A stretch of 64,000 bases of DNA from a virus (Duplodnaviria > Caudoviricetes): the IMG/VR virus record IMGVR_UViG_2721755587_000002; one strand, given 5' to 3'. Below, one piece after another: positions 25,915 through 31,811 of the stretch. Position numbers and translations under genes: made by a program. Below the pieces are notes generated by a model. It had not been told where the DNA came from. It ran no database searches and was given only the letters and a program-made list of their open reading frames with translations. Position 1 is the first letter of the stretch; each line of letters starts with the position of its first letter.

Positions 25915-26603
25915 GCTCACTCAAGTTTCGCGGCGTGTATCCGCACAAGGACAGCGGGTGGACTGCGGCCATCGGGCACGAAGGAAAGCAGGTCTACCTT
26001 GGTTGGTTCGCGGACTTCGAGTCTGCAAAGGCAGCACGTCTCGCGGGCGAGCTGCGCCTGTTCGGCCAGGTGTTCGACCGGCGCGAGATCGAATGCGACG
26101 GAGTAACGGCAAAGCTGCCCTTGCACGGCCAGGGTGGCGTGTTCCACGGCTGGGCGCTTATCGACGCCAGCGACCTGGACGCAACGCGAGACATCGCGTG
26201 GACGAAGGACGCAAGAGGCTATGTTGTCGGTCGCCCGCCCGGCTCTACCAACAGCGTCACCCTGCATCGCTGGCTACTGGTTGGGGGCGCCAAGGGGCGG
26301 CTCATTGTTGACCATGCCAATCGGGATCGGCTCGATAACCGGCGCGGGAACTTGCGGTGGGCGAACTCGAACGGCAACGCCCAGAACACCAGCCTAGCGA
26401 AGAACAATTCGAGTGGCTTCAAGGGCGTCGCGCGCGCCGCGCGCGGGAAATGGCGGGCTCGCATCTGGGTTGACGGTAAAGAGCGGTTCATTGGGCTCTA
26501 CGACACCAGGGACGCGGCTGCTGCGGCCTATGACGCGGAGGCGCTGAGGCTGCATGGGGAATACGCATCGCCGAATGCTGCCTTGGACGTGAGCGGTGAG
26601 TGA
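25911..26603 (+). CDS. AP2-HNH-AP2 homing endonuclease
   Basis: FRGV..WTAAI..YLG; VDHANRDRLDNRRGNLR; SGFKGV..WRARI..AAAAYD. Confidence 0.9.
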   Translation: MSSLKFRGVYPHKDSGWTAAIGHEGKQVYLGWFADFESAKAARLAGELRLFGQVFDRREIECDGVTAKLPLHGQGGVFHGWALIDASDLDATRDIAWTKDARGYVVGRPPGSTNSVTLHRWLLVGGAKGRLIVDHANRDRLDNRRGNLRWANSNGNAQNTSLAKNNSSGFKGVARAARGKWRARIWVDGKERFIGLYDTRDAAAAAYDAEALRLHGEYASPNAALDVSGE

Positions 26604-26679
26604 CCGCATCAGCAAGCGCTACAGCACCGCGCCCGGTGTGTGCGTCAGCGTGGAACAACTGCCGCTCCAAGCGGCTTGA
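26596..26679 (+). pseudogene. Possible C-terminal remnant of a RusA resolvase
   Basis: ISKRYSTAPGVCVSVEQLPLQAA* resembles RusA-family C-termini. Confidence 0.4.
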
Positions 26680-26704
26680 AGGAATGAAATTGACTGGGGA
26701 AACC

Positions 26705-27310
26705 ATGACCGAAGAACGCCTGTTCGATAGCTCTCACGCGGCGCTCGTGTTCGCGTTCAACTTTTCCGGGCAGCAGTACCAGGCGTCGGCGATGAACAAG
26801 GCCATGACGCCGCAGATCGGTTCCGGCAAGGGGCTCGTCGGGGTCGACGGCGCGGCGCAGGCCGGTATGATCCGTCGAGAATTGGGTACGCTGCCCGAGC
26901 TGCATCAGGCGGTGCTGACCGCGCGCGTGGCGCCGCGCGACGTGCCGTGCGAATGCACCCGGCCATGCTGCAGCGGGCGCCTGCCCAATGCCGAATGGAC
27001 CGACGCCATCGTTTGGCTGACCGAGCGCGCCATGCAGCAGCTGTCCGGCTCGTTCTCGCACTACCGCGTGCGTCGGTCGATCCTGGAAAAGATCTTCGGG
27101 GTGAAGGTCAACCTGGCCGACATCGCCGAGGCCTGCGGCGCGCACCGCAACACGGTCAGTGACCAGAACGCGAAGCTGAAGCTGTGGATCGAGGGCGAGA
27201 AGGGGCGTAAGGGGTTGAACGCGGCGCCGGGCGTTGAGGCGGTCGCCTGGATGGCCATTGATGGTCGCCTGAAGGCCGCGCGGATGGTCGGCGTCGAGGA
27301 AGCTGCGTAG
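26705..27310 (+). CDS. Late transcription regulator (antiterminator Q-like)
   Basis: Position, CECTRPCC motif and C-terminal HTH (LADIAEACGAHRNTV). Confidence 0.65.
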   Translation: MTEERLFDSSHAALVFAFNFSGQQYQASAMNKAMTPQIGSGKGLVGVDGAAQAGMIRRELGTLPELHQAVLTARVAPRDVPCECTRPCCSGRLPNAEWTDAIVWLTERAMQQLSGSFSHYRVRRSILEKIFGVKVNLADIAEACGAHRNTVSDQNAKLKLWIEGEKGRKGLNAAPGVEAVAWMAIDGRLKAARMVGVEEAA

Positions 27311-27320
27311 GAGATCGGCA

Positions 27321-27962
27321 ATGAAGGCGACCAAGGAAGAGCGCCGCGAGCGCGCACGGAAAAGACGTGAGGAATGGCAAGCTGAGCTTGCCCGGCTGCA
27401 CTCCAGACAGACGCAAAGCCAGGATAGCGCTGCGAGGGACCGCGCTCACGCGCGCAACAGGCAGTTGCTGGAAGCTGCTCAAGATCAGATGCGTGGCGGC
27501 GCGTTTCGGGCCTGGTATGAGGCCACGACGGGTGAGCCAGTAAGCGAATTCTTGGCCGATACGCTGCTCACCCCGGAGCAGTTTCTCGCGCGATTCGATG
27601 GCAGGATGCGCCAGCTTGAGTGGACGCAGATGCGAATCGAGCGTGTCGTGCAGGACAATCCGTGGACCAACCCGGAAACGAAGGGGCTGTGGGCCGAGCA
27701 GATTAGCTTGACGACCTCGCCGACCGAGCGCCGGCGGATCATCATGAGGTTGGCCACGCCGCGCTGGGCGAATAGGGAGGCGGTGACCGCCGTCTACCTG
27801 GAGCGCGAGCGCATGATCGTAGAGACCGGCATCCTTCATCAGGTCGACCATATCGTTCCGTTGGTGCATCCGCTGGTCTGCGGGCTTCACTGCGAGTACA
27901 ACCTGCGCGTCACCACGGCGTTCGAGAACCAGTCCAAGTCCAATTTTTTTGAGATTTCTTGA
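27321..27962 (+). CDS. HNH endonuclease
   Basis: HQVDHIVPL..CGLH..NLRV..ENQSKSN. Confidence 0.88.
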   Translation: MKATKEERRERARKRREEWQAELARLHSRQTQSQDSAARDRAHARNRQLLEAAQDQMRGGAFRAWYEATTGEPVSEFLADTLLTPEQFLARFDGRMRQLEWTQMRIERVVQDNPWTNPETKGLWAEQISLTTSPTERRRIIMRLATPRWANREAVTAVYLERERMIVETGILHQVDHIVPLVHPLVCGLHCEYNLRVTTAFENQSKSNFFEIS

Positions 27963-28020
27963 CTTATTTCGAGGTCTGCACAAAAATGGCCTCTATTCGA
28001 TACACCTGCGAATTACGTCC

Positions 28021-28050
28021 AAAGCCCGCGCAAGCGGGCTTTTTGCTTTT
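28021..28050 (+). terminator. Intrinsic terminator (tR'-like), just downstream of a TTGACT -35 at 27959
   Basis: AAAGCCCGC-GCAA-GCGGGCTTT followed by a T-rich tail. Confidence 0.8.
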
Positions 28051-28109
28051 CAGAGCCCGCCAGGTTCTCGCCTCGCGGGTCTTTTGCTTTGGGCGTTTCG
28101 GCGTACTTG

Positions 28110-28298
28110 CTACGCGAAATCGCCAAAGCGATCTGGGTCGTCTGGCATCGTCCACTTGATGGATTCTTCTTTGATGTCTACCGCCTTTTTCGGTGGGGGC
28201 AATGTCGTATGTGGTGCGAACGCTAAAACTAGCGCGGACTGTGGCACGTCGAGAACTTCCTCGCCGTCTTCGGACCAGCACCTGAGACTGACAGCCAT
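28110..28298 (-). CDS. Hypothetical protein (counter-oriented)
   Basis: GGAGG SD. Confidence 0.6.
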   Translation of the reverse strand: MAVSLRCWSEDGEEVLDVPQSALVLAFAPHTTLPPPKKAVDIKEESIKWTMPDDPDRFGDFA

Positions 28299-28327
28299 GT
28301 GAGCCTCCGGTAAGTGATTCCAGAAAT

Positions 28328-28700
28328 CCCTACTGCATTGGAAATGCAGAGGGGGCGAACTCCTACCTTAGGCCGACTCTATGACAGTTTGCTGACGTCA
28401 TTGACGACAGGAAACGGGATGCAACTCTGGGGCCAGCCATGTTCCTGCCGACCTACTGTTTCCTGCTGTGGGGTGTCTGGTTTCAGGCGCGCTGGCCACA
28501 GCCCCCTCACGCAGGCCGGTTGCCGGGACTCTCCCCGAGTCGCGAAAAACTGGTAGCCGGCCTGACGTGAGGGCGTAATGTTCTGCCAGGGAATCATTAG
28601 ATTCCTGGTGCCGATAGGGTGCCAAATACGGCACAGCCCAACTAGTGTCTCCTCCACCCACCCCGTGGTGGATTGCCCGGCCTCCCGCCGGGCTATTTTC
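28328..28700 (+). ncRNA. Putative large structured non-coding RNA in the late leader
   Basis: At least eight stems, several needing G-U pairs that work only on the plus strand; ends in a terminator-like hairpin at 28675-700. Confidence 0.55.
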
Positions 28701-28728
28701 TTCCCTGTCCCGCGCATTGTTGTCGTCT

Positions 28729-30111
28729 ATGAAAACATCCAACCAGCTCGCCATCGCCTACCGCGCGGCGGCGGACCTGGTCCGGTACGACAGGAATGCG
28801 CGGACGCACAGCGCCGCCCAGATCGAGCAGATCAAGACTTCACTGCGGCGCTTCGGCTGGACGAACCCGGCGCTGGTCGCCGGCGAAGACCTGCTGGCCG
28901 GCCACGGCCGCATCGAGGCGGCCACGCAGATGTGGGCGGCTGGCGAGACGATTGCGAATTGCCCTGTGCCCGGCCAGGTGCCCACGGTCGACCTGTCGCA
29001 CCTGTCGGCGGACGAGCGGCGAGCTTACATTTTGGCCGACAACAAGCTGGCCGAGAACGCCGGCTGGGATGTGGACCTGCTGGCGATCGAGCTGGCCGAC
29101 CTGCGCGACGCGGACTTCGACCTATCGGTGATCGGCTTCGACGCTGGCGAGCTGGCCGAGCTGCTGGACCCGCCGCAACCTGGTCCACCTGGTGGTGGCG
29201 CCGGCTCGCTGGCCGAGCAGTTCATGGTGCCCCCGTTCAGCACGCTCAACGCGCGCGACGCCGCGTGGCAGGACCGCAAGAAGGCCTGGCTGGCGCTGGG
29301 CATCCAGTCGGAGCTGGGCCGCGACGCGCCGGCGTTTTCTTCGGCGTCCGACCAGCAGAAGGCGGATCGCGGCGCGCCGGCGCAACACCGCACCAGCATC
29401 TTCGACCCGGTGCTGTGCGAGCTGGCGTATCGCTGGTTCTGCCCGGCTGACGGCCTGGTGCTCGACCCGTTCGCGGGCGGCAGCGTACGCGGCATCGTCG
29501 CGGCGCGCCTGGGGCGGCAGTACGTCGGCATGGAGCTGCGCGCCGAGCAGGTGCAGGCCAACCGGGCGCAGCTGGATCTGCTGCGCGCTGACGACCCCGC
29601 CCCAGCCTGGCACGTGGGCGACAGCCGCAAGATCGGCCAGCACCTGGCGGATGTCGAAGCCGATTTCGTGTTCTCGTGCCCGCCGTACGCCAACCTGGAG
29701 CGCTACTCGGACGACCCGGCGGACCTGTCCACGATGGACTATCCGGCCTTCCTGACCGCTTACCGTGAGGTGATCTCCGGCGCGGTGGGGCAGCTCAAGC
29801 CCGACCGCTTCGCCTGCTTTGTGGTCGGCGACGTACGCGAGAAGCGCGGTACCGGCTGCTACCGCAACTTCGTGGCCGACACCATCGAGGCGTTTCTGGA
29901 CGCTGGCACGGAGCTGTACAACCACGCGGTGCTGCTGACCGCGCTGGGCAGCCTGCCCATCCGCGCCGGCAAGCAGTTCAGCGCCAGTCGGAAGCTCGGC
30001 ACGGCGCACCAGCATGTGCTGGTGTTCGTGAAGGGCGACTGGAAGCGGGCGGTGGCCGCGTGCGGTGAGGTGGACGTGTCGGATGACCTATTCCCCGAGG
30101 CGGAGGAATAA
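28729..30111 (+). CDS. ParB-like N-terminal domain fused to an amino (N4C/N6A) DNA methyltransferase
   Basis: NARTHS..FGWTNP..AGHGR..ILADNKLAENAGWD; VLDPFAGG; SCPPY. Confidence 0.9.
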   Translation: MKTSNQLAIAYRAAADLVRYDRNARTHSAAQIEQIKTSLRRFGWTNPALVAGEDLLAGHGRIEAATQMWAAGETIANCPVPGQVPTVDLSHLSADERRAYILADNKLAENAGWDVDLLAIELADLRDADFDLSVIGFDAGELAELLDPPQPGPPGGGAGSLAEQFMVPPFSTLNARDAAWQDRKKAWLALGIQSELGRDAPAFSSASDQQKADRGAPAQHRTSIFDPVLCELAYRWFCPADGLVLDPFAGGSVRGIVAARLGRQYVGMELRAEQVQANRAQLDLLRADDPAPAWHVGDSRKIGQHLADVEADFVFSCPPYANLERYSDDPADLSTMDYPAFLTAYREVISGAVGQLKPDRFACFVVGDVREKRGTGCYRNFVADTIEAFLDAGTELYNHAVLLTALGSLPIRAGKQFSASRKLGTAHQHVLVFVKGDWKRAVAACGEVDVSDDLFPEAEE

Positions 30112-30139: not shown

Positions 30140-30538
30140 ATGGCAGGACGCAAACCTTTCGTGCCGACGGCGGCAGACCGCAAGTTGGTCGAAAGCGCCG
30201 CGGCCTTCGGCATCCCGCAGGATGAGATCGCTCGGCTGATCACCAACCCGCAGACGGGCAAGCCGCTGGCGGCCGTGTCCCTGCGCAAACATTTCCGCAT
30301 CGAGCTGGAAACTGGTGCGACGAAGGCCAACATTGCGGTGGCGAACGCGCTCTTCCGCGCGGCCACGGGCAGCGGCAAGGGCGCCGTGACGGCGGCTATC
30401 TGGTGGACAAAGTCGCGGATGCGCTGGCGCGGCGACGGAACGGACCCCGAGGACGAGACCCCGCCGGCGGCGCAGACGTTCACCTTTGTGGTGAAGGACG
30501 CGCGGCGCCCTGCAACCGACCCCGATGGCAGCGAATAG
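30140..30538 (+). CDS. terS: Terminase small subunit
   Basis: Position; GIPQDEIA..LRKHFRIEL..AAIWWTK. Confidence 0.85.
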   Translation: MAGRKPFVPTAADRKLVESAAAFGIPQDEIARLITNPQTGKPLAAVSLRKHFRIELETGATKANIAVANALFRAATGSGKGAVTAAIWWTKSRMRWRGDGTDPEDETPPAAQTFTFVVKDARRPATDPDGSE

Positions 30539-31811
30539 CCCCTCCCTGAACGTCCCGCAGGCTGCCTTCCTGCAGATGCCGCACAAGTTCCGGGCCTACG
30601 TGGCCGGGTTCGGGTCCGGCAAGACGTGGGTGGGCTGCACCAGTATTTGCCAGCATTTCTGGCGGTGGCCGAAGATCAACCAGGGCTACTTCGCGCCGAC
30701 CTACCCGCAGATCCGCGACATCTTCTATCCCACGATGGAGGAGGTGGCAGCCACGATGGGCCTGCGGGTCAAGATCAACCAGAGCAACCACGAAGTCCAC
30801 GTCTACGAGGGGCGGCGGTACCGCGGCACGATCATCTGCCGCTCGATGGAGAAGCCCGAGACCATCGTGGGCTTCAAGATCGGCCACGCGCTGATCGACG
30901 AGCTGGACGTGATGAACCCCATCAAGGCCCAGACGGCCTGGCGGAAGATCATCGCGCGCATGCGCTACAAGGTCGAGGGGCTGCGCAACGGCATCGATGT
31001 GACGACGACCCCCGAGGGGTTCAAGTTCGTCTACCAGCAGTTCGTCAAGGCCATCACGGAGAAGCCGTCGCTGGAAAGCCTGTATGGGCTGATCCAGGCC
31101 AGTACGTTCGACAACGAGCTGAACCTGCCGGACGACTACATCCCGTCGCTGCGCGAGAGCTATCCGCCGCAGCTGATCGAGGCGTACCTGCGCGGGAAGT
31201 TCGTCAACCTCGCAGCCGGGTCGGTGTATCCGAACTTCAGCCGGAAGCTGAACCACACCGACGACGCCATGGCGGCCGGCGAGCCGCTGCACGTCGGCAT
31301 GGACTTCAACGTGCTGAAGATGGCATCGGTGATCTACGTGGTGCGCGACGGCACGCCGCGCGCGGTTGGCGAGCTGACCAAGGTGCGGGACACGCCCGAG
31401 ATGGCGCGGATGCTGAAGGAGCGGTTCAAGGACAAGGGCCATGCCGTCTTGATCTATCCCGACGCGAGCGGCCAGAACACCAGCAGCAAGAGCGCTAGCG
31501 AGTCGGACCTGTCGATCCTCCGGGGCGCCGGGTTCCAACTGCAGGTCAACTCGACGAACCCAGCCGTGAAGGACCGGGTGAACGCCGTCAACGCCCTGAT
31601 CCTGAACGACAAGGGCGAGCGCCGGCTGAAGGTCAATACGCACCTGTGCCCGGAGTTCACCGAGGCGCTCGAACAGCAGCCTTACGACAAGAACGGCGAG
31701 CCGGACAAGTCAACCGGCCACGACCACGTCAACGATGCCGGCGGCTACCCGCTGGTGAAGCTGTGGCCGATCGTGAAGCGCGCCGCGACCGTCCGCCCCG
31801 TGAACATGTAG
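30525..31811 (+). CDS. terL: Terminase large subunit
   Basis: Walker A AGFGSGKT, Walker B ALIDE, TTTP, RNase H GMDFN and DHVNDA. Confidence 0.95.
   Translation: MAANSPSLNVPQAAFLQMPHKFRAYVAGFGSGKTWVGCTSICQHFWRWPKINQGYFAPTYPQIRDIFYPTMEEVAATMGLRVKINQSNHEVHVYEGRRYRGTIICRSMEKPETIVGFKIGHALIDELDVMNPIKAQTAWRKIIARMRYKVEGLRNGIDVTTTPEGFKFVYQQFVKAITEKPSLESLYGLIQASTFDNELNLPDDYIPSLRESYPPQLIEAYLRGKFVNLAAGSVYPNFSRKLNHTDDAMAAGEPLHVGMDFNVLKMASVIYVVRDGTPRAVGELTKVRDTPEMARMLKERFKDKGHAVLIYPDASGQNTSSKSASESDLSILRGAGFQLQVNSTNPAVKDRVNAVNALILNDKGERRLKVNTHLCPEFTEALEQQPYDKNGEPDKSTGHDHVNDAGGYPLVKLWPIVKRAATVRPVNM

Follow-up and report, generated by a model that had tools for sequence, protein, structure and literature searches.

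A structured interval before the terminase genes of a betaproteobacterial prophage probably forms part of a mosaic late-operon leader that holds inserted cargo between two terminators

At the head of the late operon of a lambdoid-type prophage, which resides in an 8.4-Mb, two-contig betaproteobacterial genome (IMG/VR record IMGVR_UViG_2721755587_000002; the 64,000-nt stretch analyzed here is referred to as the window), lies an interval of about 370 nt, 28328-28700, that can be drawn as an almost unbroken series of stems. What such an interval might be is the question addressed here. A sequence-only reading had taken it for one densely structured non-coding RNA of a new class and had correctly placed it on the plus strand, at the head of the late operon, with a terminator right before the first late gene. 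Based on the distribution of its parts among relatives, their separate folding, and a structural model of p236, a 236-aa protein encoded upstream, we consider it probable that the interval is instead a mosaic constituting the downstream two thirds of a prophage late-operon leader of the lambda pR'-tR' kind, with two terminators and inserted cargo. We further propose that the late operon is probably switched on by an antiterminator of the AlpA/Q type. The interval would then resolve into the last terminator of an AlpA/Q-type leader, which resembles the Rfam family RF02278, a hairpin motif of narrow distribution that is a candidate for a new RNA motif, and a hidden small gene.

The mosaic is apparent from the relatives of the locus (G numbers denote genomes and L numbers individual loci). 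DNA searches covering 78 genomes of the genus and some 400 of the family recovered homologues of pieces only; no homologue spanning the interval from end to end turned up in these or in a phage collection, and none of 50,697 phage records was matched by 28299-28730 in a blastn search. In G427, 27977-28496 (89% identical) and 28641-28730 (93%) are present with approximately 940 nt of other DNA between them; in G417, the upstream terminator t1 is joined directly to 28420-28730 (70%) and the minus-strand gene that separates them in the window is missing; and G428 has 28500-28730 only. G283 and G430 retain t1 and 28646-28730 only, and G431, G403 and G404 possess 28030-28419 along with the minus-strand gene. 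This separate occurrence of pieces defines four modules, with junctions near 28419, 28497 and 28641. What had been seen as one nearly continuous structure is thus inherited as at least four separately occurring modules, of which one belongs to a minus-strand gene, one is coding and one is RF02278-like. The parts of the interval and its immediate border are:

28299-28419, minus strand: module A, the promoter region and 5' untranslated region (5'UTR) of the minus-strand gene small62, including a hairpin at 28328-28354, the first stem of the sequence-only reading (co-occurrence; z -3.0)
28439-28570, plus strand: module B, a small open reading frame (ORF) with a frame running to 43 aa (homologue comparison; the homologous part is 28420-28497)
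28502-28575, plus strand: module C, a rod hairpin of 74 nt, its apical loop being CUCCCC and its internal loop GCGAAAAAC (folding; compensatory changes)
28586-28608 and 28618-28634, plus strand: two small, weakly supported hairpins, partly conserved in L024
28646-28700, plus strand: module D, comprising a 5' UGUCUCCUCC, hairpin 1 and terminator t2 at 28675-28700 (Rfam; covariation)

Thermodynamic folding was applied to the interval and to its pieces. The plus strand of 28328-28700 reaches -172 kcal/mol, against -141 ± 6 for shuffled sequences (z -5.0; minus strand z -3.4), and the stems listed by the sequence-only reading do exist, including the terminator at 28675-28700, which is called by a pattern scan. 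When the interval is folded piecewise, its excess stability is seen to come from the rod (28502-28576, z -8.1 on the plus and -3.8 on the minus strand), module D (28645-28706, plus strand z -4.4) and a single hairpin (28320-28360, plus strand z -3.0). The stretch 28577-28645, with the two small hairpins, gives z -2.3 on the plus and -2.5 on the minus strand. The stretch 28400-28500 gives z +0.49 and +0.63, respectively, with 135 of 200 shuffles folding equally well on the plus strand, and two further stems and a pseudoknot proposed here are therefore no better than shuffles. These overlie the Shine-Dalgarno region and conserved codons of the small ORF; we rejected the pseudoknot (28427-37 with 28491-501), whose arms are that Shine-Dalgarno region and the Trp-Pro codons, as the pairing is also lost in L004, L005 and L006. 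No Rfam family is matched at the gathering score anywhere in the window. Permissive matches to isrK (17 bits, 27978-28044), AS-pc02, SorX, Bp1_781 and the Trp and Leu leaders are far under their cut-offs and were taken as chance or generic terminator resemblance, and a search of the window for tRNA and tmRNA found none.

Upstream of the interval, the following features are found:

26600-27310, plus strand: p236, an antiterminator candidate resembling AlpA and Q-lambda, 236 aa, its true start probably being ATG 26684 (structure model)
27959-27987, plus strand: candidate late promoter, TTGACT-17-AAAAAT (promoter scan; conserved after p236 homologues)
27994-28020, plus strand: conserved initially transcribed region, an A/T-rich -10-like block ATTCGATA followed by GAATTACGTCC (conserved across genera)
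28021-28047, both strands: terminator t1, bidirectional, which also ends the minus-strand small62 (terminator scan)

Searches with p236 against Pfam and PDB sequences recovered nothing significant. Its AlphaFold (AF2) model, with a pLDDT of 81.7, retrieved as top matches in Foldseek the P. aeruginosa antiterminator AlpA (7xyb_G and 7xya_G, probability 1.0). Alignment with VIA-align gave Z scores of 14.7 and 14.0 for AlpA over 146-151 residues (for 7xya_G, Z 14.7 over 146 of 158 residues with a root-mean-square deviation of 3.6) and of 7.7 for Q-lambda (7ubn_Q), the remainder being generic helix-turn-helix proteins with Z of 5 or less. In this model, p236 carries the AlpA/Q fold. The p236 family is characterized by an invariant DGAAQAGMI block (consensus GKGLxGxDGAAQAGMI), a PCxCxxxCC cysteine cluster and a C-terminal helix-turn-helix.

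We found 28 loci with p236 homologues (L033-L060), and in at least 16 of these, from many genera, a promoter, a conserved start region and a terminator occur together within 300 nt 3' of the homologue. The consensus of this unit consists of CTTGAC, a 17-19-nt spacer that often contains an inverted repeat, an A-rich -10 box, an A/T-rich block such as that of the window, GAATTGCGYCC and an intrinsic terminator. It is present in Cupriavidus, Rugamonas, Duganella, Burkholderia, Pigmentiphaga, Achromobacter, Advenella and Parapusillimonas, as well as in a metagenome-assembled genome of the Rhodocyclaceae. The window copy spans 27959-28047; a TGCAC beside the -10 of its promoter is invariant among close relatives, and t1 is 90-94% identical in five of them (L003, L022, L024, L026 and L028). 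Both AlpA and Q depend on three elements (PMC9371919): one for binding within the spacer of the promoter, one that resembles a -10 box and induces pausing, and a terminator further downstream. We suggest that 27994-28020 may act as a sigma-dependent pause site.

The correspondence with the characterized units, namely Q-pR'-qut-6S RNA-tR' of lambda and AlpA-PalpB-tB of P. aeruginosa, extends beyond the fold of the antiterminator. In each case the target promoter directly follows the antiterminator gene, conserved sequence is found both in the spacer of the promoter and over the ~30 bases transcribed first, and an intrinsic terminator occurs a few tens of bases further on with the late genes beyond it; the approximately 50-nt, t1-terminated leader proposed here is comparable to the lambda 6S RNA. 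There are nevertheless clear differences. In sequence, the p236 protein is not similar to AlpA or to any Q family, and it has a Cys-rich insert; in the window, cargo genes lie between two predicted terminators that are separated by about 650 nt, and the second of these terminators is built into an sRNA-like element (sRNA, small RNA); and an HNH gene parts the candidate antiterminator gene from the promoter. The genes around the leader and within it are:

27321-27962, plus strand: HNH/endonuclease VII-like gene between p236 and the promoter (phrog_26577, phrog_1035)
28110-28298, minus strand: small62, a 62-aa gene with a GGAGG Shine-Dalgarno sequence, a moron-like insert (ORF list)
28729-30111, plus strand: first late gene, coding for a protein with a ParB-N domain and an N6/N4 DNA methyltransferase (Pfam PF01555, phrog_498, phrog_15396), here called ParB-methylase
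30140-30538 and 30525-31811, plus strand: terminase small and large subunits (Pfam Terminase_6N/6C, phrog_309)

The gene order is p236 and the HNH gene on the plus strand, t1, small62 on the minus strand and the interval 28328-28700, followed on the plus strand by ParB-methylase, the two terminase genes and the portal gene. For a neighboring gene, an uncultured Cupriavidus is the nearest relative with a name. The HNH gene is not found at this position in relatives, five of which (L022, L024, L026, L028 and L003) have the promoter unit straight after the p236 stop codon. It sits at a place where relatives have about 40 nt, and 10 nt separate its stop codon from the -35 box. ParB-methylase begins 28 nt past t2, and neither a promoter nor a Shine-Dalgarno sequence of its own was found. 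In the 30 nt upstream of the starts of ParB-methylase (28729), the small (30140) and large (30525) terminase subunits and the portal gene (31839) no Shine-Dalgarno sequence is recognizable, unlike the HNH gene and small62, both of which have a strong one.

In light of these observations we propose the following scheme. Transcription would start at the sigma-70 promoter at 27959-27987, which would belong to p236, and without p236 the polymerase would halt at t1, leaving a leader of approximately 50 nt; any leak-through past t1 would halt at t2, 28 nt before the ParB-methylase and terminase genes. Loading of p236 at the promoter would allow the polymerase to pass both t1 and t2 into the packaging genes, running antisense across small62. 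As a promoter scan found no promoter-like site between t1 and the late genes, late transcription must pass both terminators. The cargo between them would be small62 with its promoter and 5'UTR hairpin, a truncated start of the small ORF, and the rod. Hence, the earlier suggestion of a late antiterminator or attenuator finds support in the AlpA/Q-like gene and the conserved promoter-terminator unit upstream, although not in the form of a single RNA.

The second terminator is part of module D, which precedes ParB-methylase in all related prophages and is the only piece between t1 and that gene to be kept in all of them. Here the earlier remark that the RNA family was not recognized holds in part only: the last 55 nt of the interval resemble RF02278 (Betaproteobacteria toxic small RNA), whose known members are ncS03, ncS05, ncS27 and ncS62 of Burkholderia cenocepacia. 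Module D aligns with the full model (1-64) at 42.0 bits (E 6.8e-7). It shares with the family the single-stranded CU-rich UGUCUCCUCC, the reverse complement of a ribosome-binding site, a first hairpin starting from CCACC, an AUU linker, a GC-rich terminator hairpin and a U-tail. It departs from the family in that its hairpin 1 loop is CACCCC instead of a second CUCCUCC, its linker is shorter, its U-tail is interrupted, a promoter of its own is not recognizable, and it occurs inside a prophage late leader, 28 nt before the first late gene, whereas the family is chromosomal and intergenic. In the window, UGUCUCCUCC occupies 28646-28655, remains single-stranded until the CC with which hairpin 1 begins, and is identical to that of the host copies. 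Seven related prophage copies of D score 35.4-45.7 bits against RF02278. The host chromosome has three RF02278 copies above the cut-off (70, 52 and 51 bits), plus weaker: G000:C1:589056-589119, C1:4195071-4195131 and C2:2713950-2714011. In a model-based alignment of 20 elements including D, 96% of the cells are paired, 7 of 11 pairs show two-sided changes, none of 500 shuffles is as good and the slid controls fall well short too; the alignment was fitted to the model and leans towards it. We posit that t2 is the second hairpin of a diverged RF02278 member. The conserved CU-rich 5' end of D suggests an added role at the RNA level, in which D might pair with Shine-Dalgarno-like sequences, either as the 3' end of the terminated leader or after processing of the late mRNA.

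A comparable placement of such elements is seen in the p236-anchored loci. There, RF02278-like matches (obtained with model R2) are all on the sense strand and downstream of the p236 homologue (L033, L036, L037, L034/L035 and L041/L043); no match to this model occurred in equally long upstream flanks or on the opposite strand. An ORF of at least 60 aa begins 7-60 nt past the element in each case checked (L035 was left out), and these ORFs, judged by their translated N-termini alone, look like ParB-methylase, an HNH endonuclease and a tail-sheath-like protein. As only about five independent lineages are involved, this placement is suggestive and does not amount to statistical proof. Nine viral contigs of IMG/VR likewise carry similar elements, and in one contig the element is situated 3' of a p236 homologue. 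In Parapusillimonas sp. JC17 (L056, 4720-4820), a stretch resembling the 3' half of a tRNA (T-arm and acceptor end) lies between the leader terminator and the RF02278-like element, where ARAGORN calls no tRNA. The literature searched contained no report of phage-borne or leader-embedded RF02278 members, a search that cannot exclude one.

Module B overturns the earlier statement that the interval contains no convincing ORF. The frame opening at ATG 28439, which is preceded by a GGGG/GGAG Shine-Dalgarno sequence, is conserved over its first ~20 codons in six other loci. The family form is a Trp-rich, hydrophobic peptide of 24 aa (MFLPTYxFLLWGVW..WPxNDG*), and five of the six other copies have exactly this length and end in N-x-D-G-stop; among these five is a copy from a different genus whose ORF overlaps the stop codon of the gene before it. 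Several codons differ only at synonymous third positions (GGT/GGC, GTC/GTG, CTG/TTG), and the comparison of sequences thus indicates that module B is protein-coding. In the window the homology ends at 28497 and the frame continues into the rod to give 43 aa, from which we take this copy to be truncated or remodeled. In several prophages the 24-aa small ORF is the first frame after the late-leader terminator, for instance at L024:1523-1597 and in L065 (G288:C12:19164-19235).

The rod is a conserved structure and the sole candidate for a new RNA motif in the interval. The remark that its three non-Watson-Crick pairs are all G-U was borne out among its 28 pairs, and the plus strand, at -51.5 kcal/mol, is more stable than the minus strand at -42.9. 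RNAalifold of the rod with two homologues gives 30 pairs, three of them with two-sided changes, and a covariance model found five copies in four genomes, within the genus only; in a more distant copy (46 bits) further pairs are altered on both sides. All five copies have the CUCCCC/CCCC apical loop, and four of them the GCGAAAAAC internal loop. A length difference of 4 nt breaks the frame across the rod, which is therefore non-coding. It matches no Rfam family, and pattern scans (two of IMG/VR and one of metagenome contigs) found no copies. In G402 the rod lies beside a divergent P22-like coat gene; a TATACT box immediately precedes it, and a terminator follows about 340 nt further on. The ~340-nt non-coding stretch that it heads there exists in two copies, L066 (G402:C11) 270-605 and L070 (G402:C23) 1501-1840, which differ by an internal replacement; the stretch 268-712, including ~110 nt beyond the terminator, has a z of -2.9. 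This rod-headed stretch may be a longer prophage RNA. That the rod is a small mobile RNA module is plausible. With regard to the idea that it mimics a repeat of clustered regularly interspaced short palindromic repeats (CRISPR), no Cas1 match was found in its own genome, and no comparison with repeats was made.

As for the upstream end of the interval, module A accompanies small62 wherever it is found (L022, L023, L025, L027 and L002). It contains the Shine-Dalgarno region of small62, the hairpin 28328-28354 and a conserved block TGTCATAGA (in the minus-strand reading) that resembles an extended -10. In the two more distant copies, L027 and L002, the hairpin persists although its sequence differs. 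As module A goes with small62 and holds its Shine-Dalgarno region and -10-like block, the first stem is most simply explained as a 5'UTR structure or operator of that gene. The small62 protein itself is conserved at 71-89% in L022, L023, L025 and L027, is absent in L024, and has no family match in Pfam or PHROGs. A paralogue, 42% identical, is present on contig 2 of the same genome (L002, region of G000:C2:2272650-2272716).

How do other explanations fare against these data? The one that deserves most attention, although we regard it as unlikely, is that D is an independently transcribed gene for a trans-acting sRNA, a prophage paralogue of the host double-hairpin sRNAs, that in the lysogen represses host mRNAs through pairing of its CU-rich 5' end with their ribosome-binding sites and whose location is incidental. 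The first 13 nt of D, UGUCUCCUCCACC, are identical to host copies from several genera; the conservation of the seed is stricter than a mere terminator needs; the architecture of two hairpins and a terminator is shared; the host has copies above the Rfam cut-off; and the Burkholderia family members are real double-hairpin sRNAs of 57-92 nt with start sites of their own and with their effect carried by the CU-rich end (PMC5688073). On the other hand, all eight prophage copies are below the gathering cut-off, and no promoter-like site lies upstream. The host copies show clear -10 boxes, whereas in the prophages a mosaic junction with variable DNA lies about 5 nt before UGUCUCCUCC, so that no promoter belonging to D itself is conserved. 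The element of L036 and L037 begins only ~15 nt past t1, which leaves no room for a promoter, and the fixed place 7-60 nt before the first late gene in different phage types speaks for a link between the element and the leader. Two further candidates in this segment were discarded: TTGCCC-15-TATTTT, a possible promoter within D, is kept neither in L024 nor in L032, and a minus-strand ORF using the GGAGGAG found on the reverse of D as its Shine-Dalgarno sequence is a 14-codon frame that varies in sequence between loci. A more far-reaching and very unlikely extension is that D is a phage device of which the late leader supplies large amounts, whether these are the 3' ends left by termination or are cut from the antiterminated late mRNA, and that this anti-Shine-Dalgarno mimic sequesters host or early mRNAs that bear a Shine-Dalgarno sequence; the first late genes, devoid of Shine-Dalgarno sequences, would escape and the CUCCCC loop of the rod would add a second site. 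The HK022 put RNAs, which are cis-acting antiterminator RNAs of two hairpins in a phage operon leader and have no U-tract terminator, offer another comparison. D likewise is a two-hairpin, sense-strand RNA in a phage leader, but it ends in a U-tract terminator and no sequence or Rfam match to put was found (no put model was run). With a protein of AlpA/Q fold encoded next to the promoter, a put-like RNA antiterminator is not needed.

Two other readings concern the interval at large. That all of 28328-28700 forms one structured RNA of a new class, be it an antiterminator RNA, a packaging RNA, a ribozyme or a decoy, is the least credible of the explanations considered. The fold of the whole is better than shuffles, and better on the plus than on the minus strand, the G-U pairs of the rod favor the plus strand, and Rfam gives no match at the gathering score. 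Yet the comparative data already contradict a single RNA: the modules are inherited separately, 28299-28419 belongs to the minus-strand gene, 28439-28497 is coding and free of excess structure, and the excess stability resides in the rod, D and one hairpin. It is the rod and D, rather than the interval, that look like genuine RNA elements. Alternatively, the inverted repeats, above all the rod, might act as DNA, in the form of a pac or cos site, an operator bound by a protein or a scar that a small mobile element left behind; this we hold to be highly improbable. In HNH-dependent packaging, as in HK97-type phages, cos sites usually sit between the HNH and terminase genes, and the interval has just such a location; both strands fold better than shuffles; and the occurrence of the rod in unrelated prophage contexts is like that of a mobile element. 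However, the three G-U pairs of the plus strand would turn into C-A on the opposite strand, stability favors the plus strand by 8.6 kcal/mol, the asymmetric GCGAAAAAC internal loop is conserved in four of five copies, and the rod is single-copy in this genome. Furthermore, close relatives with the same terminase lack the rod, and the terminase is of the Terminase_6 type with an adjacent DUF4055-domain protein, which we take to be the portal; this combination presumably points to headful rather than cos packaging.

The proposal of a mosaic late leader has its own difficulties, and the following points weigh against it. Promoter and start site are predicted, as are termination at both t1 and t2 and read-through. 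In the window, other sequence takes the place of the left half of the spacer palindrome that relatives show, such that loading of p236 might be impaired, and no hexamer of the window copy combines an A at position 2 with a T at position 6, leaving the -10-like pause element without a confident placement. The U-tract of t2 is interrupted (CUAUUUUCUU), and t2 could therefore be weak. The match of D to RF02278 does not reach the gathering score of 50, and the conservation of the seed in more distant loci partly stems from the search, which used the motif and a covariance model. Finally, the rod is absent or truncated in G417, and is thus dispensable for the leader.

The mosaic leader reading has implications at several levels. 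Dense GC-rich stems between phage genes may consist of unrelated pieces, with a hidden small gene among them, which calls for caution when such regions are interpreted from their nucleotides alone. The rod adds a candidate structured RNA motif that moves between prophage contexts. The presence of sub-threshold RF02278 relatives inside late leaders raises the question of a shared origin or function between these sRNAs and phage leader terminators; were the bulk production of D to be true, it would tie a family of "toxic" sRNAs to phage late-leader RNAs and represent a new RNA-based takeover of translation. A likely new antiterminator family, AlpA/Q-like and without a Pfam match, together with its promoter-terminator unit, appears to control the late genes in prophages of many Betaproteobacteria, for which the scheme proposed here provides a testable model of switching.

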